In this document: piece by piece, positions 14,501 through 57,292 of the stretch
Layout of the letters: each line of letters starts with the position of its first letter
Numbering within the stretch: position 1 is the first letter of the stretch
Assembly: GCA_964016885.1 (NCBI GenBank)
Contig: OZ024744.1
Coordinates: forward strand, 70,060,001 to 70,124,000
DNA from: Eledone cirrhosa
Lineage: Eukaryota
Length of the DNA stretch: 64,000 bases
Reading direction: 5' to 3'
Made by a program: the position numbers and the translations under genes
The notes under the pieces: model-generated
Database searches by the model: none
The model's input: the letters and a program-made list of their open reading frames with translations, nothing else
Told to the model about the DNA's origin: nothing

Positions 14501-16240
14501 TGAGATAAGCAATTTCAGGCCCATAACTCTGCTCAACACAGAGTTAAAGATTTTGGCCAAAGTGCTAGTAGCGAGGCTGGCGCTTGTCGTCGAGAACCTG
14601 GTAGAGGAAGTGTAAACGTGTGCAATCCCGACCAGGTCCATACACGACAACCTCCACCTCATGCGATACATCATAGAGAGGGTAGGGTCTAAACCTGGCT
14701 TTGGTGGGGCTCTTATCAATTTAGATCAGTCTAAGGCATTTGATAGGGTCGACCATCAATACTTGGAAGCGGTTCTCAAGGCGGCCGGCTTCGGATCCCG
14801 TCTTGAAAGGCTGGATCGCTGCCATGCACACCAGCATCTGCTCGGCAGTCAAGATGAATGGCTACCTATCGGAGCCATTCCAAATCATGCGTTCCATCTG
14901 TCAGGGATGCCCTCTCTCCTCCATTCTGTATGTACTGACTCTCGAGCCGTTACTGCGGAAGCTGGAGCTGTTGCAGGGCATCCCGATCGAACCAGGACTG
15001 AGGAAAGCAGCGTCGGGATATGTCGACGACATAACCGTAATGGTGTCGAAAACCTCGGAAATCGGGGTAATCGGCAACCTATTACAGGAATACGAAACGT
15101 TGACAGGAGCAAGACTAAACCCAAACAAGTCTGTCAGTTTGCAACTCGGCACATGGAGAGGCAAACCCATGCCTTCCGACAGTGTCGTTGGAAGCTGGAC
15201 GGAAGGACCGGTGAAATTGCTCGGGGTCTGGTTTGGACCAGCCCTCCAGATGGACAAGAACTGGAAAGAGGTCACGGCGAAGGTGTTTGCACTCACCCAG
15301 TAGTGGGTTGAATGTAAACTTTCCTTGAAAGGTCGAGCGGAGGTGGCGAACACTTACATAGCGTCCGTCATCTACTATTGCTTGACAGTCGTGCCTTGCC
15401 CTCGTGAATACCTCACCAAAATGGAACGCCTACCCTTCAAGTTCCTCTGGAAGAAACAGGTTCCATTGGTGAGGAGATCCATCTGCTGTCAAGACCCTTC
15501 TAACGGAGGGCTGGGCAAGCCGTGGTAGATGATGCGCAAACACGCGCTGAGGCTACGCCATCTCCAGGTATTCCTGACCGGTGAACCGGTGTGGCTGTCG
15601 TTTGAGATACAAGCTCTTCCACAATTCGTCTCACTAACAGAGCTACAGTCCTGGGTCAAGCAAAGACCGAAAATGGGTGCCTGGCACCTCGAGTACCTAC
15701 AGGCGTTCACAGGCCTCTACCAAGCGGAAACGGCGATCAGCGGAGACCCCACTTCGACATTCTATAGGGAATTAGTGGAGGATAAGTGCGACGACGTTCT
15801 CGGGGAAACTCTAGGCATCGAGGAGGACGAACTGACCAGTCTGTTCGGGAGGACTTTCCGTTCAGGGCCTATGGATAACTTCCAGAGGTCTCTGGCCTGG
15901 CAGTGTTCGAACAAATTCTACAGGCACGGACACCCTGGCAGAGATCCTGCCAAAAGGACCTGTCCAAGATGTGAGCAGGACATCGAAACCATTCTGCACG
16001 CAATTGTTCAGTGCCCAGGGGTAACCGACCTGTGGAATTATGTCGAATAGCTACTGTCACGTGTGGGACGCATCCAGTTGTCAGCCAAGTCCATCGTGAG
16101 GATCACCCCGCCGCCTTCATTTAAGAATGAAGGAGAGGCGGTTTTCCTCTGTCTAGTGGCTGTGGCGAAAGAGGTAATATGGTGGACGAGGTTAAAAGGA
16201 CTTCTTTAAGTATCACTTCAGAAGGAAGGTGAGAGTGGAT
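11520..16240 (+). mobile_element. L1/Tx1-clade LINE, near full length but decayed (ORF1 zinc knuckle; ORF2 APE-RT-CCHC)
   Basis: ORF1 remnant RPQCFK*GKDTHLKAFC; APE motifs AVYAP, LAGDWN, SYLDRF; RT motifs FRPITLLNTELKILAK, LDQSKAFDRV, QGCPLS, YVDD; CPRC..H..C. Many stops and frameshifts. Confidence 0.9.
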
Positions 16241-18561: not shown

Positions 18562-20146
18562 ATGTTGGCCCTGCAAGGTGACGGGTGTGTGAAGAGAGAC
18601 GCTAGTGGCAGTACCCCACGTGGACGGTGGGACCAGCGATAGAGAGACGCAAGGTAAGTCCGAATGCCTCCGACTACAAGCTATTTCGGCGTTTAATGAA
18701 TTTTCCTATCTTTCGGCATTCTTACTCCCGGCACGGCAGCCCTTTAGTTTACCTTTTTTTTTCTTTTTTTTTACTTTTGTTCTTTTTCGTGGGGTATCGT
18801 TGTTGACTTCTCCGATCTTGCAAGGGAGATGGCGGCGAAGCTGATATTGAATAACGAGGCGATCAAGGCTTTTAACGGCGAAGGAGATGTGGCCTGGTTG
18901 AGAAAGGCCACATTGGTCGCCTCACTGCAAGGCATTGACAATGTTGCTGATTTGATCGCTCTATATCTCGACGGGGATGCCTAGCACTGTACCTCGAGAT
19001 AGACGAGAGCGACCAACTGAACGCGGAGAAGAAAGGACAGCGACTTAAGGAAGCATTCACCGAGGGGCCGTACGTTGCTTTTGCCAAGCTAGGCAGAGAG
19101 AGATGGCAGGGAGAGCACGTGGACGTGTTTGCGACGGAGTTATGGTGGTTGGCTACGTTGGCCGGATTCGCGGTAGAACGCGAATGTGCCGTGCAGTTGG
19201 CTTTTATGAGCGGGTTCCCCGACGAAATCTCCGTGAAACTCCAACAGCTGCCTGGCAACAGGGAGATGAGCATGAGCGATCTCATCGCACAGGCCCGCGT
19301 AATAACACAGGACACGAGGTGGAGTGTTGCAGCGCTGGCAGCGACGGAAGCCCATGGCAGTCGACAGCGACCGATGTATAACGAAAGGAGACCAGCCGCT
19401 GTGAATAGTCGTCCGCGTGCGTTCGGAGGCCGGTGTTTGAGGTGCCAGGGCCCGCACATGGCAAGGGACTGCAGAGAGCCGAAGCCGGCTATAGTCTGCT
19501 ATCGCTGCAAGCAACCAGGCCACATCGCAAATAAGTGTGACCAGGGACATAGTCTAAGGGGGGCTACTGCGCCGGTAGCCACCCCTGGAAGCGAGTAGAG
19601 GCGCTTTTGCAGTCGCTGCCCGTAGTGGAAGTTCGGGGAGGAGGGGGGGGGGGGCATTGCGAGCACTCGTGGACACGTGTGCACGACAACACTAGTGACC
19701 ATGGAGGTGGTTAAAAAGTGGAGCGGGATGAGCAGTATAAGGGCAGTCAACAGCAGGGAGATTAGATGCAGAGGTACCAGCAAGGTGTCGATGGTGGTAC
19801 GGGGAAGAAAAATTAGTCTTCGGGCGATCGTGATTGACCAGGTGGCGGACGACGATCCACGAAGAAAATACCATACAGGGCAAGGATTTCAGGGCGGTGT
19901 TCGATGGCCAGCGGTTGGTAGTTGAGTGGTACGGGAAGGGAGAGCCACCAACGCTGAATAGAGTGGGCTGCTATCAACAGAAGCGAGTTTGAGGGAGAGG
20001 TTCAGAGATGGATCGAGGAGGGTATACTGATTCCTTGGAAAAAGGAGGCGAAGTGTGGAGTGTTGCTGCTAATGGGAGTGGTGCAGCCCACAAAGAACAA
20101 GGTTAGGCCGGTGCTGGACTTTCGTGAGCCGAACGAACACGTGTCA
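18562..20146 (+). mobile_element. Ty3/Gypsy LTR retrotransposon fragment (gag with two CCHC knuckles, protease, RT start)
   Basis: CLRCQGPHMARDC, CYRCKQPGHIANKC, ALVDT, KNKVRPVLDFRE. Confidence 0.8.
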
Positions 20147-20480
20147 CCGAACTAAAACCCTTTTTTCCCACTACAAGCCGAATATTACATAAAAGAGGGA
20201 CATCCCCCCAACTATATAAACCTCAATCTAGTTAGAAAAATATAAAAACAATCTCTTCTCAACATATATATGTATATTAATAACCTCAAATTACCACACT
20301 AATAATGGAAAGATATGCTGATGAGAATAGGTGCGAAAATGCGATAATGAATGTGTCTAAAAGCGACCATAAGTATGTATATATATGTGAAAATGTATAT
20401 AAATAAGTAAATATATATATATATGTTTGATGTGTATAGTTAGATGTAAGTGTATTCATGTATTAAAGTGCTTATATATA
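20143..20480 (+). mobile_element. 5'-truncated copy of the 3' end of the 26495-29607 PLE
   Basis: Near-identical to 29091-29430. Confidence 0.9.
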
Positions 20481-20496
20481 TATATATATATATATG

Positions 20497-25908
<5,412 letters not shown>

Positions 25909-25910
25909 TT

Positions 25911-25978
<68 letters not shown>

Positions 25979-26494
25979 GTATATATATACACATAGACTA
26001 GAGTATGTGTGTATATATGTGTGTGTCTATACGTGTGTATATAAAGATAAGTTGAGTATAAAAATGAATACACATGAATACATGTGTGTATATATATATG
26101 TATGCATGTGTATATGTATGTAAGTATGAACATGTTACTATGTGAATGTGAGTATATGTATTTTGTAGAGGTGTGCAAATATGTTTGTGTGTGAATGCGT
26201 GGGTGAAAGGATACGTACACTTGAAAGAAAAATTTAAGTCTGAATGTTAATTAAGTGCAAACACAAAACCAACCACGCATATCTTTACTATCTCTAATCC
26301 TTCTATAGATTTAGAAAAATAACCAATAATATTTTCTATAAAAATGTCAAAACAACAGATGGGAATCTAATTACTCACTGCCACCAAAAATTCTCACTGC
26401 TATAAAAAAAAACCACTCCCTCAACTATTCTTCTAACAACTTCACCCCTCCCTCCTAATATTCTCTATAAAAACCAAACAGGTCCTCAGTAATA

Positions 26495-26615
26495 TTATTC
26501 TGATGAAATGACAGTAAATAATAACATTGAAATATTGAATGTCTGCATAACTAATACTTTGTAGATAGCAGCTGTTTTCAGGTTATGTAACTGTTATAGA
26601 AACACGTGTCAATAA
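26495..26615 (+). ncRNA. Type I HHR with ~90-nt stem II in the 5' pLTR
   Basis: TTATT-CTGATGA-A-ATGACAGT...ACTGTTAT-A-GAAA-CACGTG-TC-AATAA. Confidence 0.75.
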
Positions 26616-26819
26616 ATTCCTTTCAACTAAACTGTATCCATTCAAATCTTTCTATTTTTCTCCGGATTACTTTTGGAACTACAACTGGAACCGTCGAGCA
26701 AACTCTACGTGAGCTGTCAATCTACTGTGTGTAATATTTATATTACAACACAACGGAAAATACTGTATATATACCTCCTGTAAATTCGTGCAACCCACAC
26801 AGCAAATGCAACCACAACA

Positions 26820-29140
26820 ATGGAAAAACACTACCTGGATATGTCACTCAAAAACATACCAACCCAAGGTAAAAAGGAATACTTATTGAGTATGATTAAA
26901 AAAACTAATGAATTCATTCGACGTGTCAGGTGGAAAACGCTCCACTATGATAGAAGCCGTATGAACTCACCATTAGAAAGTGGTGTAAACAACAAATTCG
27001 GTTTTAGAACGTGTAAAAACCCACCCACCAACCCACTATTAGATGCATTTGAGCAGGACCTTATGAACTTAATCCTTAAAATTAAATTCAAAGGACGTAA
27101 CACCAACAACAAATTACAGAAAGATATTAAAAAACTACTGGACGACCTTAAAAACACCAAAGGAATTGTAGTAAAAGCGGACAAAACATCAAACCTGTAT
27201 ACTATGGATTGCACTACATACAACAACTTCATTCGAAAAGAATTACATAAAAAAATATAGAAAAACGAATGAAGTAACTCTTAAGCTCATCAATGATGAG
27301 GCATGCGAAATAGTGAAAAATCTCGGAATCGAAGATAGGACAGGACCACTCTTACCGGCGGTACCCACCTTCAATCTTAAGGACCATAAGGTAAACTTTG
27401 ATAATGACCCTAAAATTAGATTAATCTGCCCCTCTAAATCAGATATAGGTAAAATAAGCAAATATATCTTAGATAGAATCATCCCCCAAATTAAGGCTAA
27501 GGTTAACATTAAACTCTGGGGGAAGACCCAAGAAGCAATAAGATGGTTTAATAGCATTAGCAATAAGAATAAATCTAAGTTTATCCAGTTTGATATCGAT
27601 GAATATTACTCATCGATATCACCTGAAACTTTGAATAGAGCCATTAAGTTTGCTAAGGATAACTCTGACCTTACAAACGATGAAATTAAGATTATATTAG
27701 CTAGGAAAACTATAGTCAAATTTGAGAACAGTTATTGGGTACGTAAAGATAGACCCTCTAACTTTGACATAACAATGGGCTCTAACGATTCGGCGGAAAT
27801 AACTGATACTGTGGGGTTATTTATCGCCTTTAGACTCCAGGAAAAATTCAGCAATCTCCACGGCGGAATATACCGCGACGATGTTCTCCTCCTAGTTAAA
27901 AACCTAAATAACCCAAAACTAGAAAAACTACGCAAAGATATAAGAAAACTACTACTCGAAATAGGACTAATTATAACATATGAATACAACCTTAAAGTAG
28001 TTAACTTCCTGGATGTCACACTCAATTTAAACTCTGGTCTGATTAAACCGTTTCATAAATTGAATGAAAATCTCAAATACGTAAATGTTGGGTCTAACCA
28101 CCCCATCTCTATAATTAAATCTATCCCTAAAAATATTTCCCTTAGAATCTCGGGTCTATCTTCTAACATACAAGTATTTAAGGAACACGCCGAGTACTAC
28201 GATAACGCCCTTAGTAAAGCAGGCTACCTCAACAAAATAGAGTATATAGATGGGAACAATCAAAACACCCAAAATAAATCCCACATAGGTAGATATAATA
28301 ACACAACACCAAACCACACTTACTACCATAGTATGCACACCAGTAAACCAACAAACAAAACTAATAGAAAGCGATGCAAAGAGTACTTATGGTATAACCC
28401 CGAATACAATAGTTCCATTAGTACAAATTTACCAGTACTCTTCTTTAAAATAATTAAGAGACATTTTCCTACATCACACAAATACCACAAAATCCTAAAC
28501 CCTACCACTATAAGACTGTCATACTCTACAACGTTAAACCTTGAACAACACATAAAAAAGATCAATACTAGAAGGTTAAACGAAAACACTAAAAACTTAA
28601 GTACAAAGAACACAAGAAAAAACAGTAGACAATACACTACAGAACATAAATAAACCACACCTAAGTTCGTCCGCAATACTACTCCAGAGAAAACCCAACG
28701 TACACAACTGTAACTGCACCTATCCTGGCAACTGCCCCCTCGGCAATAACTGCCTGGAAAAAAATATTATTTATAAGTGTACCATTAAATCCGGAGGCAA
28801 CGAGTGGTATTACGTGGGATCAACGGCAACATCGTTTAAATCTCGATTATATAGGCATTCTTACTCAATAAAATACCAGAGCCAAAGAAATGTAACAACT
28901 TTAGCAGAAAAAGCTTGGATGCTCAGGGATAGCGATCAAAAGTTTACCCTAAAATGGGAGAAATTAGCTAAAACCCAAAGCTTTTCCAGGAGCCAAAATT
29001 TCTGCAAATTGTGTAATCTTGAGATTTATTACATAATCACACACAAGAAGAAATTGCTGAATAACAGAATTGAACGAACATTATTCTGCCGTCACCGAAC
29101 TAAAACCCTTTGTTCCCACTACAAGCCGAATATTACATAA
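26820..29140 (+). pseudogene. Near full-length PLE ORF (RT + C-terminal GIY-YIG) broken by frameshifts/stops
   Basis: SLKNIP, VKADKT, QFDIDEYYSSI, MGSNDSA, GIYRDD, IIY..YVG, CKLC; pLTR segment 26533-26655 is repeated at 29485-29607. Confidence 0.9.
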
Positions 29141-29448
29141 AAGAGGGACATCCCCCCAACTATATAAACCTCAATCTAGTTAGAAAAATATAAAAACAAT
29201 CTCTTCTCAACATATATATGTATATTAATAACGTCAAATTACCACACTAATAATGGAAAGATATGCTGATGAGAATAGGTGCGAAAATGCGATAATGAAT
29301 GTGTCTAAAAGCGACCATAAGTATGTATATATATATGTGAAAATGTATATAAATAAGTAAATATATATATATGTTTGATGTGTATAGTTAGATGTAAGTG
29401 TATTCATGTATTAAAGTGCTTATATATATATATACATGTATTAAAGTG

Positions 29449-29489
<41 letters not shown>

Positions 29490-29735
29490 AATGTCTGCAT
29501 AACTAATACTTTGTAGATAGCAGCTGTTTTCAGGTTATGTAACTGTTATAGAAACACGTGTCAATAAATTCCTTTCAACTAAACTGTATCCATTCAAATC
29601 TTTCTATATATATAAGCGCTCATATATTCACCTAGCTTATGCTAACAGAATAACTATGAAGCTTGTTTCCTTCTTTCTACGGTTAGCTCTACTCTTTGTT
29701 GTTTTCCTGTCTCACTCGCTTTACGCGTTTTAATT

Positions 29736-29836
29736 GTCCTAATAACTTAATTTAGTTATTATTGCACTGACGTGAGGTATATGATTTTTAATGCAATGAA
29801 ATATCTATGATCGTCGGCAAATCACTGATGAGGGAC
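29736..29836 (+). ncRNA. Candidate rearranged (pseudoknotted) hammerhead with K-turn, copy A1
   Basis: GGTA-TA|TGATTT ... T-GAAA-TATC ... AAATCA-CTGATGA-G-GGAC; see findings. Confidence 0.65.
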
Positions 29837-30248
29837 TTATTTTATTACATGTTATCCATGTGCTACCAGCAGTATTTTTCTCCCCATTTTATCACATATA
29901 TTTACCTAAACTGCGATTCTGTTTTTTTCTCTCTCTCTCTCTTACTGCTCCCTCATTCTCTCTGTTTCTCCTACTTTCTTTCGCCCCCTCTGTCATGTCA
30001 GTTAACTCTTCCTCACACTTCCACTCACTCACTCACTGTTTCTCCTCTCCTCACTTCACCCCGTTCGCAACGAAAGCAATTTCTCTCTTTCTCACATTGC
30101 ATTCGTTCGCGAAAGGTCTTTTTTCTAAGCGCTCATATATTCACCTAGCTTATGCTAACAGAATAACTATGAAGCTTGTTTCCTTCCTTCTACGGTTAGC
30201 TCTACTCTTTGTTGTTTTCCTGTCTCACGCGCTTTACGCGTTTTAATT

Positions 30249-30349
30249 GTCCTAATAACTTAATTTAGTTATTATTGGACCGACGTGAGGCATATGATTT
30301 TTAATGCAATGAAATATCTATGATCGTCGGCAAATCACTGATGAGGGAC
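30249..30349 (+). ncRNA. Candidate rearranged hammerhead, copy A2 (two helix mismatches)
   Basis: Same motif, with ATTGGA and GGCA substitutions. Confidence 0.6.
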
Positions 30350-30444
30350 TTATTTTATTACATGTTATCCATGTGCTACCAGCAGTATTTTTCTCCCCAT
30401 TTTATCACATATATATATATATATATAATAGTAATAAACGAAAG

Positions 30445-30975
30445 ATCATCATCATCATCATCATCATCACCGTTTTATGTCCGTTCTTCCACGCTAGCAT
30501 GGGTTAAATGGGTTGTCCTGTTGTGGGCAGTGTCGAGTCGGCTGACCTTGTCTTGCTCATACGGGAACTGATTCTGGCTTGATTTCTACAGCCGGATGCC
30601 CTTCCTAACACCAACCTCATTTACAGTGAGTGCTGGGTGCTTTTTTGCCGTGGGAGGGGGTGGGGGCATATTGTCTATATGCTTCAGCTTCGGCTTGTAC
30701 CCGAGGGAAATCGGGTCTTCTGTATTACTGCGTGACGCCAGAGGTCACGATCGTGTGTCATCGCCTTTGAGGGGTGAAATTGGATAAGGTCGGCTTTTAT
30801 CACCTCATCCCAGGTCTTCTTGGGTCTCCCCACTCAGCGGCTTCCATCGACTTCTAGTGCTCTGCACCTTTTTATGCAGCTGTCATCCTTCATACGCATC
30901 ACATGTCCATACCAGCGCAACCTCCTCTCCTGCACACAGCATCTGATTCCTCTTATGCTCAGTCTCTCTCTCAAT
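30445..30975 (-). mobile_element. RTE-like LINE 3' end with (TGA)n tail
   Basis: Minus strand CCVQERRLRWYGHVMRM..GRPKKTWDEVIK. Confidence 0.75.
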
Positions 30976-31141
30976 TCATATCATCTCTATTTATTTCATT
31001 ATATATATTTCGAAGATATAAAGTTTTATGTATAACATAAAGCATAATATGAACCCCAGAAAAAATATATAGCAAATGTATAATTTTTTCATGATATGCT
31101 GATAGACAAACGAGCTGGACAAATCGGTGACCACCAAGTAT

Positions 31142-31288
<147 letters not shown>

Positions 31289-31845
31289 CACATATATATA
31301 TATATAAACGGAAATATATATATATATATATTAATTAGACAATTCTATTGATTGATTAATTGTTTATGTTTGTTTGATAACTTTTAGTTGAGTGCTTAAT
31401 TCGGTTTGTGTAAAGGAATTTTATTCCTTTGTTCCAAATTTGAATTTGACCGCCAAAACCGGGATTACCTCCCTTCGGGAAAACCATGTGCCTTCTACCA
31501 GTGTTCACTGCTATTATTCACACTCGGGCGGACGAGAACGAAAAACTTGTTGACGAAGTAAATTCCTCTGTTCTATCTTCCAAAAACCATTAAGTTGCAG
31601 ACCCCTGCAAGTAGATTTTGGCGATTTCAGATTTACAGAAACCTAGCGGAGATATTATATATTATATGTGATGTATATTATATATTATATATCATGTGTT
31701 GTGTATGGTATCGACGCAACGCTCCAGGTTTGTCATATTTTATCCTGAGTTCAGTTTTTTCCGTCGCTTTGGTCACTGCGGCCCGCCTATCGGTCGCTGT
31801 CTTCAATTTGCAAAGCTGTCTAAACGTAATGTTATAACTCTAGGG

Positions 31846-34574
31846 CAAAGGTTCTCAACGGGGGGTATATGCACCCCCGGGGGGAGTTTCGGAACTCCGG
31901 GGGGAGGGGGTTCGGAGCAAGGGGCGTTAGGGGGGCGTTTGGAACTTTGGAGGACACTGGAAGGCTGTTTACTTCGGTAAGTTTTATAAGCCATATTTGT
32001 ATGTCTTTTAGACAGCCAGTGTGAATGCATTTGAATGAGCATGCAGATAGCATAACTATGGTCTGATCGCAGCTGTGAGCAGGTGTTCAAGCGTGTCTAG
32101 ACATTAACCGGCAATTGAGATCCTAACAATGGAAAAACCCACAGTCAACTGGGTCAAGGACACTTCGAGCGCAACCAGTTAGAATCTTATCTTTCCTTCA
32201 TCGATAACAATGTATTTCATGTGTGAAATTATTGACTCAACCGTAACGAGTTAATACTATGTAGATCTATTTTATTCCCTATTGTATAAATAATATTACA
32301 AATAAAAAAAGAAAAAAAAACACAGAAGCGGGTAGCACACACATCTAGGACCACATACAACACAATCAGATAATACACACATCTAGGACCACATGCAACA
32401 TATAAGGAGGTAGCACACACATCTAGGAGCACATACAACACACAAGCAGGTAATACTCACATCTAGGACCACATACAACACATAAGCAGGTAATACATAC
32501 ATCTAGGACCACATGTAACACATAAGGAGGTAGCACACACATCTAGGACCACATACAATACACAAGCAGGTAATACACACATTTAGGACCACATACAACA
32601 CATAAGCAGGTAGTACATACATCTAGGACCACATGCAATACATAAGGAGGTAATACAAACATCTAGGACCACATATAACACACAAGCAGGTAATACATAT
32701 AGCTGGGACCACATACAATACATAAGCAGGTAATACAAACATCTAGGACTACATACAACACACAGGAAGGTAATTATTGACTCAACCGTAACGAGTTAAC
32801 ACTATGTAGATCTATTTTATTCTCAATTGGACCAAATACAACACACATTGTATCATGTGCTACCGATGACGCAAGAGCAATGGTCGGCCAGCATAAGGGT
32901 TTCGTCACTCTTCTGAAGAGAGAAAATCTATCTGTATTTGTTGTTCATTGTGTCATTCATCGACAACACTTGGCTGCGAAGAAACTCAGCAAACTGCTGA
33001 GCAGGTCCTTTCAGGTGGCCATTGATGTCATCAATTTTATCAAATGGCATTCCCTCAATAAACGAATTTTCCGGCAACTGTGCCAAGATAATGACGAAGA
33101 ATTCGTCAAGTTGCTCCTTCATAATGAAGTGAGGTGGCTTTCAAAGGGCAAGTGCCTTACTCACTTCTTTGAACTGTTCGACTCTATCATTGAGTTTCTG
33201 CGAGGACGCAACACAGAACTGTACAAGAAAACCCTCGATGAGAGGCAAAACTGCGCCTACCTCACCGACATCGTCGACAAATGTAATAGCGTCATTTTGG
33301 CTTTGCTGGGGAAGAAGATCACCTTGCTTAAAGCAAGGAATGCTGTGAAAACATTCCTGGCCAAATTGAATATCATCGAAAGGAATCTGTGTTGACGGGA
33401 ATTCTATAATTTTCCTAGTGTCGCCAATGTTCAAAACATTTTAAGCGATGACCAACTCCAAATTTATACCGCTCATCTCCATGCGCTACAAGATAACATG
33501 AGAAAACGGTTTGTCGACATTTTGCCGATGGACATCCCAATGGGGATAGCAGATCCCTTCAGAGTTAACGTCGATGATTTGGACGTTATATTTCAGGAAG
33601 AATTCATTGAACTTTAAGCAGATGACATGATCAAAATTAAATTTCCCAAAATAGGTGAACCCCTTTTTTGGATGCAAGAGGAAATTCAGCGTCGATTTCC
33701 ACACCTACATGCATAGGCTAGAGATTTGCTCTGCCTTTTCCAAGCTCATACTTAGTCGAGAGGAGGTTTGGTGCTGTTTCCAGACTGCACAGTAAGGCTC
33801 GCAACCACTACAATGTAATTACATGTGGAGATCTCCGGCTACATCTTACGAAAAATCCAGCCTGACGTCAAAGAGTTAGCTAGACTCCTTGAAGTTCAAG
33901 GGTCCCATTGAAATGAGGTCAAAGTTATAGTAAGTTGATTTATCCGAAAACTTGGATATGCTATTGTTACAAAACAAACTAACAATTTTTTTATTTGTAG
34001 TTGCAGTCTGACTGGACTGGAAACCATCTACACCAATTCAATTACTCATTTGTTGTATATATTTTACCATTTACTAATAAATATACCCTCCCGCTTGGTC
34101 ATGAAAACCCTCTTCCAGGGTCTCTAAGCTCACAAAGCAGAGGGAACATCAAGTTAGATATCAACATTTATTCTGTCCGTTTCATTAAACGGAAAATTGG
34201 AAGCTTTGAAATGATTTAATTGCCACTTTCTTCCAGATAAGAGCACTCTTTGGATAGACAGAGTTGCTCTTGTATAAATGTTCAAAATAGTTGGTATCGC
34301 CTGGTGGGAATATAACAAATTCAACTGGTCCTTATTCATAAAAAAGAACATTTATGTTCCTTTTATTGAAATTTATATATTTCCTTTCAAGGAATGTATT
34401 TATACTCTCAGCTGCCTGCAATGGTATCTTTGGAATATTGTTAATCAATTTTTTAGTAATCTACTGATATCAAAATCAGTAGTATATTGAAAAATGGAAA
34501 AATAGGGTAGGGCGCGTTTCGTGATTTCAAGGGACAAAAGGGGGCGTTTGGCCTAAATGGGTTGAGAACATGTG
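31846..34574 (+). mobile_element. hAT (Charlie-like) DNA transposon, decayed
   Basis: TIRs CAAAGGTTCTCAAC / GTTGAGAACATGTG; 8-bp TSD CTCTAGGG at 31838-31845 and 34575-34582; transposase remnant 32880-33395 with HCVIHRQHLAAK and EVRWLSKG. Confidence 0.9.
32335..32770. repeat. 40-bp minisatellite flanked by a ~50-bp direct repeat (32227-32279 / 32773-32823)
   Basis: About 11 copies of ACATCTAGGACCACATACAACACATAAGCAGGTAATAC. Confidence 0.9.
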
Positions 34575-38229: not shown

Positions 38230-40900
38230 AGATTTTAGCCAGCTCTCTCATCATCACCCTTCGACCCTGTTGGCTGGAACACACTCGATAATTCCTCTCC
38301 ATACCGTACCAGCCAGCATTTGCTGTCTCCACTTCTCCGAGGTGAATCTCGTGAAATAGACTCTGGATAAGTTATTTTTCAACTATGAACACTTTCTGAA
38401 GGTTTCTATAGGGGAAGCGATGAACTTACTGCTTCTTGGTCTGCCCTAAAATAATGGCCAGCGAACTGTAGCCTTTTCTGAAATTGGACTCAGACGTCCG
38501 TTGATTGTTGTCTGGTTGGATACGACCACCAGCTAAGATTCTTCATTCATTCAAGTAAGTTGGTGTAGGTGCCATTTAAGCGTGTTTCTAAACGAGTAAC
38601 GGGTGTCCAAGTTTCTGAACCATATAAGACAATTAGCTCATCTAATCTCTGAAAGGTTTTCATTTTTAAAGAGGATGGGAGATTTGATTTCCAAATTTGA
38701 TCAAGTTGGTTACATACTTTGCATGCCAAAGATTTCTAGGTGTTCAATTTTTTTTTCTTTTTTTTTTTTTGTGAGTCCAGGTTATGCGATTCAAGATAGT
38801 TAAACTCCTTTATTTGTTTGATCAAGGGTTCGTTGAGAGATTACAGTTCAGTCGATTGAGGTGCTGTACTTCGAACTTTTGTTTTGTTATCATTACAGTA
38901 CAGTCCGATTAAATTTGATGCAATTTCCAATGATTGAAGAAGAGCTTCAGCGTCTTTGTTAGTTTGAGAAATGGGTGCATGGTCGTCTACAAAATCCAAG
39001 TCAGTAAGATATTGTGCTGGACATCGGCTGCTCTGTTGAGTTTCAGCCATTATTCCTTTCTTTTTCATGATATTAAGAGAAAGACGTTGCACATAATCTA
39101 AGACAAGGATAAACAGAAAGGGTGCTAGTGTGACACCATATAGGACACCTGCATTTATGTCAAATGCTTTGGTTTCATCATCAGGGGACAGAACAACAGT
39201 AATGGTATTAACATACGGCGTTCTTATGGTTTCAACAATTTGGTTTGGAATGTCATACAGAGGGAGAATTTCAAATATAAGGTCCCTAGAGACTGAATCA
39301 AAAGCTTCACGAAAATCAACAAAGTAGAGTGTGACTTCCTTGTTAAACTTTCTCATTTCCCCAAGAATCTTTCTAATAGTTGAACTGTCCCTTCGAAAAC
39401 AATTTTGATTTTTGCGTAGCAATGGAACCACTACTGTTACAAGTCTATCCAATAAAAGTTTATTGTAAATTTTGACAGCAATATAGGTGAGATTTATGCC
39501 ACGGTAATTGGTAGTTAGGATAAGGCCATCCCCCTTTGGCATTAGTACTATCCCACCTTTAAGCTAGGCAGACGGTAAATTGAGATTACAAAAAGTATGA
39601 TTACGTAACTCTAGTAGAAGTTAATAAAATATTGAATCCTTCCATATGAAAGTAGGAATGTTATCAAAGAAGACTTATTATTTGAGAAGGAGTTGACAGT
39701 TACTTTGATCTCATTGACAGTGAAAATGGTAAGCCATTGGCTTTGACTGGTTATCCTAGAAGTTTCTTGAAATATAAGAACCAATTTCATTTTTTCCCAT
39801 TTGAATTGTTCCCCTTTCACTCTATAGAAGGGTTTTTCTTTTCTTCTTGTTACTTTGTTAAATTTCCAAGATGCCGCGTGTTGGTTAACCGTGTGTAAAT
39901 AGGACATCTTGTCGTGCTGGTTAACTGTGTGTAAGTAGATTTCATCTTGGATGTATGCTTCTTCAATACTGGCATAGGTCTCATCATGTTTCTGCATGGC
40001 TTTTGAATCAGCTTTAAATGAATTTCTCAATCCATTTGCTTCGTAACGTTGTTTAGCATCATGAAGTTCTATTCTGAAATTAACTATTTTTGCTGTCGTG
40101 GTTGAGCTAGATATTACTATTGAAGAGCTAATAATTTCCATCAAGTAGATAACAACTAAGTCAGTATTGCAGATGGGCAACCAGAAACAAACCAGTGCTC
40201 ACCAATGTGAGCCGAACTCCCACTGTCATCGCCTCCATCGCTCTCGCCCTCCCCATCTGTCTGTAATGTGAGCAAATGGGGTCCCACGTGCTGGCCTCCC
40301 CACAGCCCTGGCAGACAGAATGGAGAAGGCGTTTCCCCGGAGGATGGTAAGGGAGATGCGCTGGAAGAGCCATTCCATCTCGCAAGGCTCACACCTGCAG
40401 CTAGTCAGCTCAGGCACATATGGTGGTGAGTAGGGAGGTAACCCTAGGGCCAAGGACACCAGAAGTCTCCACTGCCAATGGCACGACCGCAAACCTGTCG
40501 GAGAGCGACCGGTCTGTTCTTGTAGTTGATACAAGTGGATGTATATAAGAGCGTAACTTTTATGTTGTGTTCTCTTCTTTTTTAGCAACGTGTTTTAGAA
40601 AGTGTTATTTCCTCTGTACGTTGTTGATTTATTTAAGCGAGTGTCGATATCACCAGAGTGGTTTGTTACTGCATCATAACAGCTCTTGACATCAATGGCA
40701 AACCTCAGTGTCATGTTGGTGTTTGATGAGACTTCATTCCAGTCTATTTATTTAATCGAATTAAGTGACGGTCGCTTTGAACATTGATAACTAAATTTAG
40801 CGTGAATAGAGACTATTCAGAATTGAGATAGGACTAGTTAGCAAAAAAAATATATTCTTAGGAAAATAATAAGACCAACCAACTAAAGTGAGACAATAGC
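38230..40900 (-). mobile_element. Decayed RTE-group LINE (RT in 38841-39542)
   Basis: NYRGINL, VDFREAFDSV, GVLYGVTLAPFLF, LDFVDD, LYGSETW. Confidence 0.8.
40157..40480 (-). mobile_element. CRE-like element 3' end (REL tail) nested in the RTE-like LINE
   Basis: WLFQRISLTILRGNA, GC-rich island. Confidence 0.55.
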
Positions 40901-41850: not shown

Positions 41851-42322
41851 ACATTTCTAGCAAATCCATGAGTCACCCCACGCCAGGCAAGTATACACTA
41901 TATTTTTAAATTTATATTAACTATTTTTTTTCAGTTCGTTATAACATGCTTATAATATTGATTGTATCATATTTACTTGTATATTTGTCCATATTATTGT
42001 TCGTTTTATGTTAGATTATTTTATTATTATTATTATGTTAGATTATTTTATTTTTTTATTAAGTTAGACTATTTGTATGTAATATTTAATTTTTATTAAT
42101 TCAACTATAACAATTATTATGTAAAATATATTTATTTAATATTGATTATTTTTTGTAGTTGTTTATATTAAAAGTCTGAAAATATTTTTATAACATATTT
42201 ATATTTATAAGATCATTTATAAAATAACAATTATATAATCTAATTACATTACAACAATAATTTATTATTAATATATATCATGTTTAATTAGAGTTATTAC
42301 AAGCGTTGCCTTAAAAAAATAT

Positions 42323-42773
42323 TAAACTAGACCTGAAAAATGCGCAAGCTCAAAAGAGCCACAGAATGTTATAATAAACCTTCAAAAGTGTGGGACTAGA
42401 GTTGTTGCTCAAAAATATTGTAATCATTATCTATCGTACACTCTGTGGCATCCTTTTATAAAAAGTAAAAATAGACTCATAACGAACTCAAGATGACACG
42501 ATAATTATTTAAGTGAATTTATAATATTAAATTCGGTTTAAGTGCATTTCGTATTAATCATTACTAAACATCTAATATGAGATATTGAACATTAGCTTAA
42601 ATAATTATCGTGTCATCTTGAGTTTGTTATGAGTCGCTTTTTTATAAAAGGATGTCACAGAGTGTATGATAGATAATGATTACAATATTTTTTAGCAACA
42701 ACTCTAGTCCCACACTTCTGAATGTTTATTATAACATTCTGTGGCTCTTTTGAGCTTGCGCATTTTTCAGGTC

Positions 42774-42780
<7 letters not shown>
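42323..42780. repeat. ~190-bp inverted repeat with ~80-bp spacer
   Basis: 42323-42513 is the reverse complement of 42596-42780. Confidence 0.9.
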
Positions 42781-42823
<43 letters not shown>

Positions 42824-42826: not shown

Positions 42827-45162
42827 AGCAGCATGGATTATAAATCTTATTGAGTCACGAGTAACATAATAATGATGTCAACAGCAGAAATTAGAAATGA
42901 AATGTATGTTTATTTTGTTGTAGCACAAATAATGTTGGTTAACTTGTATGGTTGAAGTTACACATAAAATGAGGTTACAAAAGGGAATGTGCCTTTGCGC
43001 CGGAAAGCCGGCAGGCTAAGGTGCAAAATCTCACCGTCACATGTACGTGTTGCTGGTTCGAAGATCCTGGTGCGAGAGAGAGATTCTTCAAATCTTCGCG
43101 GGTAATTTCTCCCTCAGGACGCGTAGGGATACATCCTCTTCTACTGGCGCTGATTGGCTGAGCTGAGCCAAATCACGCACAGAGAATGTATGTGAGCCCG
43201 CGGAATGTAGGTCACTACAATACTCCCCTCCTAGACGGAAATCGATACAGATTATTGAATCAGCAAGAACAAATGCTGAAAGAGCACATCAGTGAAAAAA
43301 TAATTGAGCAGAAGGATGCATGCAAGAAAAAAAATGAGGCGCTAAGGGCCGTGTTGAGCCGCTGTGTCAAATGACTAGCTGTTTTGTAGTGTATACGTGA
43401 CCACCAAAGGTCTAACAGAAAACGGATAAAGTCTGACATGGGCGAAGTTGCTGTTCTTGCATTAAATGTTAATGGCAAATGTTGTACCAGTAGCTGTGGA
43501 TGAAGCTATTATGGTAGTTTACCAGTGCTGGCAAGAAGATGATGGGTAGGCGAGAAAATGTTGGCCTCCCAGATGTATTGCCGAATGTGCTAGGGAGCCA
43601 AGAAAAAATGGCTGGTTGCTTTGAAAAGAAAAAAAAAGCAAGATGAATCTGTAGGTGGGTTGCAGTGTAAATTCCATAATTCGGGTGAATCCACAGAAGT
43701 GGTGGAAATGCTGACAAGTCCAGTTCTATTTGTTGTTTTCCCAGTGAGTCGGGTAAGATAACAAGATGGAGGTTGTTATGGACAATGAGTGTGCAACGAG
43801 ATGCGAAACTGTTTGAGTTCAGCTGCAATTAGCATTCTCGTGTTGCGGTGCCTGTCTGAATCCAGGTGAATTAAGCTCTATGAGTCGCTAGCATGTGACG
43901 GCACCTCAACCAGGTGAAAAGGGATCTCGCAGAATATTACGTTTGAAGAACATATACTAAGAACAACATGTTGGTAGGTGACAAAGAAATGTGTGCATAT
44001 GCAGGCATGGAAAACAGCAAAGAATGTGAATGAACAAAAACCATGAGCAAGCAAATAGCAAAAGAGCACAAAACAAGTAAATGCATTTTACAAAGAAATA
44101 TGTGAATGTAACAAACTGATAATTCAAAGTCAATATAAGGGAGCAGAGAAATTAATGCTCAATGATAAGTTCAAAGTTTTTCAAAGTCAAATAGTTCACA
44201 CATCACCAGTGTACAGATTTTCTGACACTAGTTCTATCTGAAAACTGAAAAAGAAGTTTGTTATGCCACTAGGGGTTAGATGTATATTGTTTTTGAGAGT
44301 TTTCGTGGCCATTTTACCGTCCTGCCACCTTGTGTGACATAAGGTTGTGTTGCTTGTTTGTATTGCAGGAAGCCGTATCGAAAGAAAAAAAAAATGTCTC
44401 CGGGCTATAATTTTGAAAATACATGTGAAAGCATAGAAGTAAACAATATGATGTGTGGTGGTTGCGTCGGTAAGGCTATGAAGCTGCTATATCACTATTC
44501 CCTGTTGTTGGTTAGTGGTTAAACAATGTTGTCGCTGCTGCTGCTGCTGCTGCTGCTGTTGTTGTTGATTGTAGACAGGACTTGTCGGTAGCCATTTTGA
44601 AATTTCCTCGTGGCGAAAAGTTTTTGAAATACTGCTAAATTTTTTTAAATTTTAAAAGGAATATTTTGTATTTTCGTAAGTTGCGAAAAGGTTGGCAACG
44701 TGGTAATAACAGTGAAGTTCAACTGAATAAAAAGGCTGCGTAAAATTCTTACGTCGGTCACCAGTTTAGCAGCATGGATTATAAATGAGATTGAGACACG
44801 AGTAACATAATAATGATGTCAACAGCAGAAATTAGAGATGAAATGTATGTTTATTTTTGTTGTAGCACAAATAATGTTGGTTAACTTGTATAGTTGAAGT
44901 TACACATAAAAATGAGGTTATAAAAGGGAATGTGCCATTGCGCCGGAAAGCCGGCAGGCTAAGGTGCAAAATCTCACCGTCACATGTACGTGTTGCTGGT
45001 TCGAAGTTCCTGGTGCGAGAGAGAGATTCTTCAAATCTTCGCGGGTAATTTCTCCCTCGGGACGCGTAGGGATACATCCTCTTCTACTGGCGCTGATTGG
45101 CTGAGCTGAGCCAAATCACGCACAGAGAATGTATGTGAGCCCGCGGAATGTAGGTCACTACA
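42824..45162 (-). mobile_element. Non-autonomous LTR retroelement (~397-bp LTRs, ~1.5-kb internal region)
   Basis: LTRs 42824-43219 and 44765-45162 start TGTAG on the minus strand; PBS TGGTGACCGACG (tRNA-Trp-like) at 44752-44763; PPT AGGAGGGGAG next to the 3' LTR. Confidence 0.85.
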
Positions 45163-45500
45163 ATATCAATGATATTAAATAAATGGAAACTATATTTATA
45201 AAACCATATTTATTCTATTATATATATATTTCAAGGGTACCAAAACTTTAGTACGCTCTCATCAGATAAAATACAAAGTTTGTTTTATAAATAGTGACAT
45301 ACCCAGGAATCAGACCTTAACGGTTCAAGTTCCGTCTGGAACCGTTAAGGTCTGATTCCTGGGTATGTCACTATTTATAAAACAAACTTTGTATTTTATC
45401 TGATGAGGGCGTACCAAAGTTTTGGTACCCTTGAAATATATATAATAGAATAAATATGGTTTTATAAATATAGTTTTCCATTTATTAATATCATTGATAT
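45163..45500. mobile_element. Inverted pLTR pair with HHRs at 45211-45273 (minus) and 45392-45452 (plus)
   Basis: Near-perfect palindrome with ~12-nt spacer at ~45332; CTGATGA..GAAA-TATATA-TA. Confidence 0.85.
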
Positions 45501-45582
45501 TATACTCCCGAAAACTTGTCGAGTGCTTCGAATCTGTTATAAATATATTTGTTAAATTACAAACAAATTAAATATCCCTTTG

Positions 45583-46834: not shown

Positions 46835-47143
46835 AAGGCTATACATTTCAGACAACACTAAGAGAATTTTAAAATTGACTGTCCAACTACACGTGGGAGA
46901 GAGAAGTCACAGCGTGTTTAAGGGCAGTGAACCAGTGGCCTCTGAGGGACGAACTGCTAGAAAGGGCAGCCCAAAGCCACTCAGAGAAGTGTGCTCAACC
47001 AAACAGAGATAGGAAAGACTGTTATTAGGAGCGAAATATTACGATAAATTAACGGAGGCATAGGCCCTCGCTATTCCCTGTAAATAATGTGCTCAAAGGA
47101 GAAGAGATCCTGAGCTCTTTAAAATACAATATGTTGAAAAGGT

Positions 47144-48729
<1,586 letters not shown>

Positions 48730-54000: not shown

Positions 54001-54710
54001 GCATTTCATTGCTAGTTATGTCTGTATGTTTAAATGCGTAAGTTAGTGCCTTATTCAGTAGATTAGGAGTGATAGATGAGTAGTAGTTAGCAATATCCAA
54101 CTGAATAAACTTATTATTATAGTTATATTTAATTTTTTTAAACCAATCGATAACCTCACTAGTTCCTTTCCATAATTTTAAGTAAGATAAATTAGGTAAA
54201 TTCTTAATTTGTGGTATTATTCTGTCTAGAATATTTTTGCTAAGTCTGCCAAGGTCAGATTTAGATGGTGCAATTAATCTGACTGGTAAATCATTTTCGA
54301 AGTTTCTTTTATGATCCTTCATATTAATCTTAGGTTTCCTTGGCATGAAGGGTTGTGTCTTATTTTCAATGTCTAGTTCATGCATTATACAAGAGGCATC
54401 TGTATTCAGTTTTTCAAGGTCGTCTTTATTTGCTACTTTGTATTTCTTCCTTAGTTCCTTTAATATAAGATCGTTATAAATGTCCTTTTGTATTCCGTAA
54501 AGATTATTGGTTTTGTCCGACTTGACTAGAATTTTCTCCGTTTTCTCCAAGCTTTCAATATTATACTTAATATTTCTTAAGTAATCTTGGCCTTTGAAGT
54601 TGTTTTTGAATTTGATGCTTTGGATGATAGATATGATATCATTTTCAAAATCCATTAGTAGTTTGTTGGGTGGGGGGGGGTGATTTTTTTAGATTTGAAG
54701 ATTTTATCCA
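51040..54710 (-). mobile_element. PLE with uninterrupted 667-aa ORF, 3' UTR and pLTR HHR (51082-51146)
   Basis: ORF 52652-54655; minus-strand CTGATGA-AAG..CTT-GAAA-TATGTA-TA-ATAAAATA. Confidence 0.88.
52652..54655 (-). CDS. PLE reverse transcriptase + GIY-YIG endonuclease (N-terminus lost)
   Basis: VKSDKT, QLDIANYYSSI, GLYRDD, NFLDVTL, CNCRNKSNCPLNSNCL, VVY..YVG, CDLC..E. Confidence 0.9.
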   Translation of the reverse strand: MDFENDIISIIQSIKFKNNFKGQDYLRNIKYNIESLEKTEKILVKSDKTNNLYGIQKDIYNDLILKELRKKYKVANKDDLEKLNTDASCIMHELDIENKTQPFMPRKPKINMKDHKRNFENDLPVRLIAPSKSDLGRLSKNILDRIIPQIKNLPNLSYLKLWKGTSEVIDWFKKIKYNYNNKFIQLDIANYYSSITPNLLNKALTYAFKHTDITSNEMHIILSARKTLIEFNNQLWTRADRNNNFDITMESSDSAQVTDLVGLFIINSLHRKIPGVTGGLYRDDMLLLIENNSCELNRKRKQIIQFFNYLNLKVEIENNHKIVNFLDVTLNLNTCLHYPFHKLNENLNYVNFNSNHPRSVKNTIVNSVQERISRISSNKNIFDEKAHYYNEALGRAGYRNKIKYIDNNNNIKTNQNNNNFNYGNNFNNYNRKHYNNSESRKRNRTRNIVWFAPPFSLNIKTPIAKLFFKALDKRFPRTHRYYSIFNRHTIKLTYSSTKNLAQNINRINNRNFKPNQNTNNNPSNIQSNNCNCRNKSNCPLNSNCLAKNVVYNCNLNSFNYVGSTPTEFKSRFNNHKNSFTDPNKKSSTSLSSLLWDLKRDNVEYSLIWNIISKATPFNSSSENCDLCIEEIFFILKTKNSLNLRNNLFSCCRHRLNSTFKYKYKFKM

Positions 54711-54948: not shown

Positions 54949-55024
<76 letters not shown>

Positions 55025-55028
<4 letters not shown>

Positions 55029-55310
55029 AAAAGATGAAATCGAAAATGCAACTGGAGTCTTATTTTTTTTAAAATATATATATTTATTTGGTTCCTTTAC
55101 CGGTTTCGCAGTTCTTCTGCTTTTCAAAAGTAGAGTTGAGATGGAGGGTCTGTGGTTTTTCCACATCTGATGTGACAAAAACCACAGACCCTCCATCTCA
55201 ACTCTACTTTTGAAAAGCAGAAGAACTGCGAAACCGGTAAAGGAACCAAATAAATATATATATTTTTTTTAAATAAGACTCCAGTTGCATTTTCGATTTC
55301 ATCTTTTTTC
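55025..55310. mobile_element. Inverted pLTR-like pair with U3-A8 minimal HHRs (55095-55130 minus, 55207-55242 plus)
   Basis: CTT-TTGAAAA-GCAG AAGAA CTGC-GAAA-CCGG-TA-AAG. Confidence 0.75.
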
Positions 55311-55371
55311 TTTATACTTTCACTCATGTAGGACACCTCGGTTATTTTTCATTTTGTAAAGAAAACCTCAC

Positions 55372-56026: not shown

Positions 56027-56085
<59 letters not shown>

Positions 56086-56091
<6 letters not shown>

Positions 56092-56385: not shown

Positions 56386-56537
56386 TTACACTCTGTATAG
56401 CTCTACACCTCAACACAGAAGTGAACCTAAACATCGAGTGCTCACCCGGGTATATATATATTGTTTATTCCCATCTTTGCGTTGCTTTCATCCTTCTATG
56501 TTGTTTACTTGTCTCACGCGCTATACGCGATTTACGT

Positions 56538-56638
56538 GTCCCAATAGGTTTTTTAGTTATTGCTCGCACCAACCTGAGGTATATGATTTTTAATGCGATG
56601 AAATATCAATGATGGTTGGCAAATCACTGACGAAGGAC
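56538..56638 (+). ncRNA. Candidate rearranged hammerhead with K-turn, copy B1
   Basis: GGTA-TA|TGATTT..T-GAAA-TATC..AAATCA-CTGACGA-A-GGAC. Confidence 0.65.
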
Positions 56639-57062
56639 TATTTTTATCATATGTAACCCATGTGTAACCACGCAGTATTCTTCTTTCTTCTCAATATTTT
56701 ATATATATTTACCTCGGTTGCGTTTGTCTGTTTCTCTCTTACTGCTTCCCCGTTCTCTCTGTTTCTCTCACGTTCTTTCGCCCCCTCTGTCAGTTACACT
56801 TTCTCTCGACTGACCTCTTCCTCGCACTTCCACTCATTCATTCTCTGTTTCTACCCTTCTCACTTCCTCCCGTTTGGCTAGTAGTGGGTTCTCTTCTTGC
56901 TCACATCTCACTCACGTCGGACGGTCTGTATCTTGATCGCTCATGAAATCCACCCATCTTATGCTGACCTGGACTACCATGTTGCTTGTTTATTCCCATC
57001 TTTGCGTTGCTTTCATCCTTCTATGTTGTTTACTTGTCTCACTCGCTTTACGCAATTTACTT

Positions 57063-57164
57063 GTCCCAATAGCTTTTTTTAGTTATTGCTCGCACCAACC
57101 TGAGGTATATGATTTTTAATGCGATGAAATATCAATGATGGTTGGCAAATCACTGAGGAAGGAC
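57063..57164 (+). ncRNA. Candidate rearranged hammerhead with K-turn, copy B2
   Basis: Same motif with CTGAGGA. Confidence 0.65.
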
Positions 57165-57220
57165 TATTTTTATCATATGTAACCCATGTGCAACCACGCA
57201 GTATTCTTCTTTCTTCTCAT

Positions 57221-57292
<72 letters not shown>

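Follow-up and report, generated by a model that had tools for sequence, protein, structure and literature searches.

In a 64,000 nt stretch of the Eledone cirrhosa genome (assembly GCA_964016885.1, contig OZ024744.1, positions 70,060,001 to 70,124,000 of the forward strand; in the following called the window, with positions counted from its first letter), we delineated two related repeats, element A (29613..30414) and element B (56461..57225), both on the + strand. We consider it likely that these are partial-tandem, non-coding repeats with twin predicted hammerhead ribozymes, which have their conserved blocks in the order called SGC and a kink-turn in one stem, and that the unit-length RNA is copied by Penelope-like elements (PLEs) into (TA)n. 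Unless stated otherwise, features given below lie on the + strand.

A motif of 101 nt occurs exactly twice in each element, in the same orientation and spaced 513 nt in A and 526 nt in B. The four copies are A1 (29736..29836), A2 (30249..30349), B1 (56538..56638) and B2 (57063..57164). A pattern search returned four matches in the window and none in 100 shuffles, and a covariance model built from the four copies gave four matches above 212 bits, with the next best at 15 bits. In every repeat, GAAA sits 27 nt upstream of CUGANGA (29798-801 and 29825-31 in A1), so that none of the hammerhead types I to III fits. The pairing of stems I and III, together with the pair 10.1-11.1, instead puts the cleavage site first, GAAA second and CUGANGA last, an order for which Eckert et al. 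introduced the name type SGC in 2023 (PMC10085705).

The canonical core (CUGANGA, GAAA, A15.1-U16.1, H17) is found in all four copies, and N7 is the sole varying position of CUGANGA (CUGAUGA in A1, CUGACGA in B1, CUGAGGA in B2; thus U, C or G). In A1 all modelled pairs and core positions are intact. Its stem III (29776-80/29801-05) terminates in A15.1-U16.1, followed by A17, and has five of five pairs in three copies and four of five in A2. Stem I (29782-87/29819-24) is a perfect 6-bp Watson-Crick helix in all four copies, placed exactly at NUH and CUGA, with the six bases immediately preceding CUGAUGA as its 3′ strand; a UUAA linker joins it to the GAAA strand. Stem II has one direct pair only, G.U or A-U (10.1-11.1; 29832/29797), between the U before GAAA and the purine after CUGANGA, and its extension, the helices X and IIb, is made by other strands. 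Analogy with the hammerhead core places the predicted cleavage at AUA|U (29781..29782 in A1), and correspondingly at 30294|30295 in A2, 56583|56584 in B1 and 57109|57110 in B2. We consider it very probable that this motif, a predicted hammerhead in type-SGC order, works or did so until recently.

Stem III runs on through a 3-nt bulge and G.A, A.G and U.U pairs into a further 6-bp helix, P1 (29767-72/29812-17), which shows two compensatory pair changes between A and B. This kink-turn (29773..29811 in A1: U3n, G2n, A1n and G-1n at 29773-76, C-1b at 29805, bulge 29806-08, G1b, A2b and U3b at 29809-11) is present in all four copies. The pair -1b:-1n is C:G and 3b:3n is U:U; for 4b:4n, A has C:G and B has G:C. 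With the 3-nt bulge, the tandem G.A/A.G and these C:G and U:U pairs it is like Kt-7 and box C/D kink-turns, element B also having the box C/D-type 4b:4n G:C; unlike standard kink-turns, it is located inside a ribozyme stem (PMC5689011). The standard definition and folding rules given there predict moderate ion folding for the A kink-turn and impaired folding for that of B.

The strand preceding GAAA (29792-96) pairs with 29762-66 just upstream of P1, not with the bases following CUGANGA; this helix IIb carries one compensatory change. The bases following position 10.1 (29833-36) pair with 29736-39 in helix X. Between the X and IIb strands lies the hairpin H0 (29740-46/29755-61), with one compensatory and one wobble change. 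Helix X, H0, IIb and the 10.1-11.1 pair form a four-way junction in which A leaves no base unpaired and B a single one, and P1, stem I and IIb meet with linkers of 0, 1 and 4 bases. From this arrangement we infer that the kink-turn folds stem III back and thereby brings P1 together with stem I and IIb at a three-way junction, which fills the role of the usual loop I-loop II contact, and that stem II is a single R-U pair continued from a fourth strand inside the four-way junction. A rough estimate by axis trigonometry, using the textbook hammerhead numbering, core stacking order, rise of 2.8 Å and angle, gave a link gap of 66 Å with a straight stem III and of ~30 Å at 50 degrees, where ~20 Å are needed; this is suggestive only, and favours the kinked form.

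We also used a generic SGC descriptor (NUH, stem I of at least 5 bp, stem III of at least 4 bp plus A15.1-U16.1, 10.1-11.1 paired). It matched A1, B1 and B2 strictly and A2 with one mismatch, and nothing else in 128 kb (both strands); in 3,529 shuffled windows (500-nt blocks) it gave 7 strict and 67 loose matches, all of which lacked the kink-turn. When the four copies are aligned, pairing holds in 133 of 135 helix cells, and both sides have changed in 4 of the 34 pairs. The pairing percentage and score were reached by none of 500 shuffles, a control that relatedness can inflate, and slid alignments had 27–52% of cells paired. Copies A1 and B2 differ at 15 of 101 columns: 11 differences fall in helices, with all pairing kept, none in the core, and the remaining four at free positions (two loop bases, bulge L1 and N7). 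When the same 15 substitutions were placed at random, the model was kept in 0 of 1,000,000 trials, a post hoc figure for a model that was read from these sequences; a covariation null presuming no model gave p=0.018. A helix scan demanding all four copies missed IIb, which was spotted by eye and then counted in the covariation tests.

Several observations speak against this fold. The copies come from only two families, so the covariation amounts to one comparison, with the structure read from the same sequences, and stem I, stem III and helix X show no covariation. Copy A2 has one pair broken in IIb (G.G, 30278) and one in stem III (A.C, 30291), and the axis estimate stays ~10 Å above what side-by-side helices need. 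In pseudoknot-free folding stem I has a pair probability of at most 0.03, with other hairpins preferred. With the 3′ tail included, the fold of lowest energy in A1, A2 and B2 is a rod in which GAAA pairs with a downstream UUUUAUY; it buries GAAA and the cleavage site and carries a compensatory pair of its own, with column 97 common to it and IIb. In the folding models the rod is likely an off state of longer or circular RNA, and it could also be the sole functional fold.

The two elements agree in their anatomy. Element A is a partial tandem of 1.56 copies of a 513-nt unit, with repeat A1 at 29613..29901, whose 5′ junction is a TA microhomology, a single-copy spacer at 29902..30125 (76% pyrimidine, with blocks 85–90% identical to B) and repeat A2 at 30126..30414, which ends at an internal TATATAT fused to (TA)n; inside TATATAT, the end of the element can be placed only to within a few bases. 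Element B comprises 1.45 copies of a 526-nt unit, measured from predicted cleavage site to predicted cleavage site. Self-BLAST of the window aligned 29613-29904 with 30126-30417 (292 nt, 97.9% identity, offset 513), 56461-56711 with 56986-57237 (95% identity), and A with B at 75% identity across 771 columns; the monomers are 72% identical. The units are low in GC and 67% pyrimidine. A preliminary description of this DNA had proposed about 1.5 monomers of 513 and ~525 nt without a credible open reading frame (ORF), which agrees with our measurements apart from the 526 nt of B. It also counted a new motif exactly twice per element. Pattern search, covariance model and generic descriptor concur in that count; the earlier motif was left undefined, so its identity with the 101-nt motif is uncertain.

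Both elements share their right end, where the unit reads TATATAT then TTACC and passes into (TA)n. The left ends are unlike, with B starting ~45 nt deeper into the unit than A. The TA microsatellite setting proposed earlier holds for the 3′ flanks (~9 TA units in A, an array of ~750 nt in B), whereas the 5′ flanks have only ~5 TA units each. Concerning coding content, element A has a 113-codon ATG ORF from 29807 that is of low complexity and has no Pfam match, and the equivalent start in B reaches a stop after 15 codons. Six-frame BLASTP of A and B against 71 PLE homologs gave no match below E=0.15, and the interiors of 223–278 nt are without PLE protein similarity. A and B share no conserved ORF. 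Conserved words of the spacer are CTTAC at 29941, which resembles a branch point, a word like a GC box at 29982, and TGTCAG|TT at 29996, whose TCAGTT resembles an initiator. The CTTAC, a pyrimidine tract and CAG are kept at 29941-30003 and 56738-56795, and conservation of the spacer blocks between A and B equals that of the ribozyme. Judged by these words, a splice acceptor or promoter is possible.

Repeat A2 differs from A1 by five substitutions, every one of them 5′ of the predicted cut, and the B repeats differ at at least eight sites. The same T/G difference splits both repeat pairs at a homologous site (29716/30229 in A, 56518/57043 in B), inside a small CGCG hairpin and in opposite order in A and B. 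The shared T/G difference and the 5′ placement of the A substitutions may reflect mixed templates.

From these features we propose the following cycle. A Pol II read-through transcript of the element would be cut at 29781|82 and 30294|95 (A) or 56583|84 and 57109|10 (B) to give an RNA of 513 or 526 nt. Such a release by two cleavages, as put forward in the preliminary description, is well supported as a prediction by the covarying hammerhead that is present twice, in the same orientation and 513 or 526 nt apart; for element A itself the intact A1 agrees with it, whereas A2, judging from its two helix mismatches, may no longer release the monomer efficiently. The unit-length RNA would probably be closed by a host ligase such as RtcB, whose ligation has been demonstrated in vitro for animal retrozymes (PMC7229834). 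A Hydra-clade PLE endonuclease would then nick (TA)n, and the nicked DNA would anneal to the internal UAUAUA, which lies 116–120 nt past the cut. Reverse transcription would continue beyond one unit and produce a ~1.5-mer; with its two complete ribozymes, this is the minimal copy from which the cycle could start again. Because a linear monomer would yield only ~120 nt, a 1.5-mer requires a circular template, a multimer left uncleaved or a jump between templates.

PLEs are the probable mobilizers: both elements join (TA)n at the same internal position on the 3′ side, their 5′ ends vary, and the window contains Hydra-clade PLE fragments. The nearest PLE (26784..29140) contains RWK, DKT, YRDD, CxCx5C and GIY-YIG-like motifs, is spread over three reading frames and hence broken, and the named eukaryotic matches of its protein are cnidarian. 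RWK, DKT and CxCx5C are features of the Hydra clade, which is known from aquatic invertebrates and inserts in (TA)n (PMC8557442). We regard this PLE as a candidate for the kind of mobilizer, located outside element A. Further PLE ORF fragments, some with DKT or CxCx5C, are found at 24341-26026 (−), 47138-47560 (+), 52652-54688 (−) and 58296-59174 (+). Mobilization by the adjacent PLE had been suggested earlier. The junctions and the Hydra-clade fragments fit with this, while the neighbor itself shares no sequence with element A, and its closeness is best explained by shared (TA)n targeting.

Other observations count against this cycle. None of the PLEs in the window has sequence in common with A or B, the ends of these PLEs lack the motif, and fragments of non-long-terminal-repeat (non-LTR) reverse transcriptases in the window are alternative sources of the enzyme. 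The predicted monomer circles are 40% paired in A (z=−4.0) and 44% in B, where stability is no better than that of shuffles (z=0.0), and the differing repeats give no sign of a single circular template. Predicted retrozyme dimers of Xenopus were cleaved in one of nine cases (bioRxiv 10.64898/2026.07.22.740005). In vitro, a PLE used uncleaved RNA and the hammerhead was dispensable (PMC11167929).

The last result bears on the circle in particular. Cervera and de la Peña proposed a circle route for PLEs (PMC4209133), and Frangieh et al. described a PLE that initiates internally on uncleaved RNA, ~85–92 nt downstream of the hammerhead cut according to the published positions, with a protein-assisted hammerhead (PMC11167929). 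Given these two routes, we see even chances for a covalent circle as the template, and the circles assumed earlier do not stand as a required step. It is conceivable, if somewhat unlikely, that the same ribozyme acts without any circle, A and B being non-autonomous PLE derivatives for which copying starts internally on a multimer that is uncleaved or arose by template switching; the hammerhead would then only trim the ends of the RNA or come into play late, aided by protein. The PLE data point this way, in that RNA without processing served as the main substrate, the hammerhead depended on the PLE protein and none of the reads terminated at the cut (PMC11167929); so do the poor self-pairing of the monomers and the differing repeats with their shared T/G site, as if two templates had been copied, although by a hand estimate that shared site has a chance of about 1 in 20. 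Against it, two complete ribozymes are kept in both elements, the rod, which could protect a ligated junction, is conserved, and animal repeats with two hammerheads yield abundant circles (PMC7229834).

Another explanation, which we consider unlikely, takes A and B as the pseudo-long terminal repeats (pLTRs) and untranslated regions (UTRs) of an autonomous PLE family that lost its ORF. The motif would then be an ordinary pLTR ribozyme and the unit would not propagate independently. A partial-tandem layout and a fixed 3′ end past the ribozyme are indeed PLE hallmarks (PMC8557442), the splice-acceptor-like and promoter-like words of the spacer recall PLE 5′ UTRs, and retrozymes have been proposed to derive from pLTRs (bioRxiv 10.64898/2026.07.22.740005). 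On the other hand, elements diverged by 28% keep a collinear unit of ~520 nt without an ORF remnant, which argues for a short unit long propagated as such, and within the window the motif is attached to no PLE end or ORF, as it would be if the copies were plain pLTRs. This explanation alters the origin and not the novelty of the ribozyme.

It is rather improbable that the motif is a structured signal, binding 15.5K/L7Ae or a PLE protein and containing a switch, that descends from a hammerhead and no longer cleaves. P1 and the UGAGGU...GAAAUAUCNAUG after it look like a type I hammerhead in which position 3 is G or C, together with U9 and G17, so that a reading as a decayed type I ribozyme overlaps with this one; the covariation is confined to outside the catalytic stems, and the rod is more stable in nearest-neighbor folding. 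This is countered by the SGC reading, under which all core nucleotides are canonical in each copy, N7 alone varying, and by the position of the perfect stem I. Finally, a terminal-repeat-in-miniature (TRIM)/LTR-type or short-interspersed-element-type insertion or a local tandem duplication that resembles a hammerhead by chance is highly improbable, despite the two ~290-nt direct repeats flanking a short interior, given the homologous units at two loci with one common 3′ junction and unlike 5′ ends, the lack of TG...CA ends, of a TGG as in primer-binding sites (PBS) and of a polypurine tract (PPT) on either strand of A and B, the lack of a detected tRNA gene in the window, and the chance occurrence of motif plus kink-turn in 0 of 3,529 shuffled windows.

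We also rejected other readings of the conserved blocks. A type II hammerhead, which would begin with GAAA and fit stems III and I into 23 nt as hairpins, leaves stem II unpaired and puts surplus bases at the cut. Taking P1 as stem I of a type I hammerhead would require U9, G17 and, in A, G3. A type I hammerhead across units, made from CUGAUGA of unit 1 and a GAAA in the spacer, fails as the spacer GAAA is not conserved in B. For a twister in BAC order, prompted by UUUAAUGC and GUCCYAA, we looked for the P2 complement directly before GAGNN and for the L4/T2 pairings; the UGCR after UAA faces CUGAY, not its complement. Rolling-circle translation is met by stops in every frame of both circles, and 526 is not divisible by 3. 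Rfam gave no match at the gathering score in the window and 30 matches at E≤10 in 24000-32000, none of them a ribozyme. A scan of bacterial and archaeal genomes gave two matches, with ~2.3 expected by chance, in which stem I had 2/6 and 4/6 pairs and P1 had 1/6 in each.

Known SGC hammerheads (HRIMA-1 and variants) share with A and B the order of blocks, the canonical core, a linker of 3–4 nt between stems I and II and a double pseudoknot, and they cleave in vitro (PMC10085705). They have G10.1-C11.1, a stem II of ~5 bp continuous with CUGAnGA and a separate helix between stems I and II, whereas here 10.1-11.1 is G.U or A-U, stem II is split with a strand from upstream of the cleavage-site block, the kink-turn extends stem III, and the motif lies in chromosomal DNA. 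Our four copies have no helix in common that would connect stems I and II on their free sides; the junction of P1, stem I and IIb appears to take over this role. The terms 'kink' and 'k-turn' occur 0 times in the supplement of that study, and its RNAs came from metatranscriptomes, with none reported in the genomes of known organisms except one GCS candidate. Its published descriptor (CGAAA, CUGAnGA(U)G and at least two further stem II pairs) gave no prefilter match in the window. As it demands CGAAA and a longer continuous stem II, a RefSeq-wide search would miss our motif, if this genome was included. The kink-turn in stem III and the completion of stem II by a fourth strand in a four-way junction go beyond the published form and did not turn up in the papers searched. 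A short stem II has a precedent in a natural hammerhead with a one-pair stem II and a pseudoknot, which cleaves at >1.2/min (PMC3088659).

Like animal non-LTR retrozymes, A and B have non-coding, low-GC head-to-tail units with one hammerhead per unit, no PBS or PPT, and co-occur with PLEs (PMC7229834; bioRxiv 10.64898/2026.07.22.740005). Those retrozymes use type I hammerheads and form highly self-paired circles of 170–400 nt (PMC7229834), with units mostly of 150–450 nt (51–972 in bioRxiv 10.64898/2026.07.22.740005) that are often multimeric. A and B differ from them in SGC order, length of 513–526 nt, 1.5-mer form, 67% pyrimidine and 40–44% pairing. The window holds two such elements in 64 kb beside several PLE fragments. 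The earlier appeal to what is established for animal non-LTR retrozymes, which involve type I ribozymes and highly paired circles, therefore does not carry over. With plant LTR retrozymes the elements share two ribozyme-bearing direct repeats around a unique interior and a ribozyme that a complementary stretch is predicted to block (PMC7229834; bioRxiv 10.64898/2026.07.22.740005); the type III hammerheads, PBS, PPT, 4-bp target duplications and Gypsy partners of the plant elements (PMC7229834) are all missing from A and B. The (TA)n targeting, the partial tandem and the 3′ end past the hammerhead are as in the pLTRs of Hydra-clade PLEs described by Craig et al. in 2021, which have canonical hammerheads and an ORF for reverse transcriptase and endonuclease (PMC8557442), the latter lacking in A and B. 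A and B would thus act as retrozymes outside the animal non-LTR and plant LTR families, with an SGC order that falls outside the published descriptor.

In the literature searched, which leaves out most subscription journals, we found no SGC or kink-turn hammerhead from an animal genome or retrozyme, nor any natural hammerhead that contains a kink-turn, and a prior description is possible; the passages covered of PMC13725137, PMC6765202 and PMC10162972 contain no such motif. A July 2026 preprint on animal retrozymes searched for type I only (bioRxiv 10.64898/2026.07.22.740005). We tentatively suggest, with more doubt than confidence, that this is the first chromosomal non-circularly permuted hammerhead of an animal, built from four strands, in which the kink-turn replaces the loop I-loop II contact and docks the host protein 15.5K/Snu13, making the ribozyme a naturally protein-gated one that sets the time at which a circle mobilized by PLEs is released, and that it represents a hidden class of retrozymes missed by type I, II and III descriptors.

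Non-circular permutations were first reported in 2023, the SGC type from metatranscriptome RNAs (PMC10085705). A chromosomal version in a mobile element would, if true, mean that the SGC topology works in animal cells. Published work assumes that neither the CUGAnGA block nor its stems can be interrupted; the kink-turn and the divided stem II go against this, so that current descriptors undercount ribozymes in animal repeats. For Naiad elements, Craig et al. described 'half cores' with the second half 35–50 nt away on either side (PMC8557442); the SGC reading makes these testable and, if true, may explain repeats annotated with 'half' hammerhead cores. Owing to its long stem III the motif needs no dimerization, unlike most metazoan PLE hammerheads. 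If the fold depends on its L7Ae-family site, it would offer a ready-made protein-responsive switch.

The window also contains nine type I hammerheads, none inside A or B. As in the SGC motif, all nine have a purine at 10.1 opposite U11.1 and a UA| site, which is AUA| in eight, and these shared quirks of the core would provide an evolutionary handle. The local PLE hammerheads, which have U11.1 and AUA| in common with the SGC motif, differ from it by a short palindromic stem III and 3′ ends 50–60 nt after the cut, compared with ~120 nt in A and B. One type I family, in which stem II is long and the loop of stem III short and nearly palindromic, is found at 8963(−), 16662(−), 18284(+), 45265(−)/45400(+), 51138(−), 58069(−) and 10853(−). 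It resides in PLE pLTRs, often inverted relative to 5′-truncated PLE copies; six members satisfy the type I descriptor, and those at 16662 and 10853 are degenerate. The region 45159-45504 is a palindrome with one type I hammerhead per strand. A second type I family has a longer stem II and inverted arrangements (1729-1964, 2786-3167 and 60404-60660, with cores at 1766, 2946 and 60441).

Next to element A, separated by a short TA run, lies a 124-nt repeat (29484..29607) that resembles a pLTR end of the neighboring PLE and is identical to 26532-26655. The 3′ UTR of this PLE at 29250-29310 and a 98% identical region at 20302-20362 contain CUGAUGA and GAAA with a plausible stem I, no U16.1 in register, no clear stem II, and a second GAAA 10 nt before CUGA; by sequence, this is possibly another atypical hammerhead. 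A hammerhead at 26500 (26488-26533) breaks off after GAAAUA, and a 7-pair match to its stem I lies just past element A (30425-30435). PLE and element A may, tentatively, have inserted together into the TA loop of this older ribozyme, with NUH one base out of register. The 3′ ends of another PLE family (23365-24400 and 47540-48000) have partial-tandem repeats of ~140–280 nt spanning the ORF end, and no CUGANGA core occurs in them.

Element B is located between an inverted-repeat element and the long TA array. Palindromic inserts of 290–470 nt, similar to miniature inverted-repeat transposable elements or fold-back elements, adjoin TA runs at 42319-42785, 55024-55312 and 56084-56386. A direct repeat (31331-31842/34714-35226, 97.7% identity) flanks 2.9 kb with a 40-nt minisatellite and transposase-like fragments; it is unrelated to element A despite the equal length of 513 nt. 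Other retroelement pieces are reverse transcriptase at 411-1794 and 38841-39563, endonuclease, reverse transcriptase and zf-RVT at 12987-16050, and a gag-like zinc knuckle at 18951-19598. The region 3302-8650 consists of ~5 kb of a TA/TG-rich minisatellite with a period of 66 nt.

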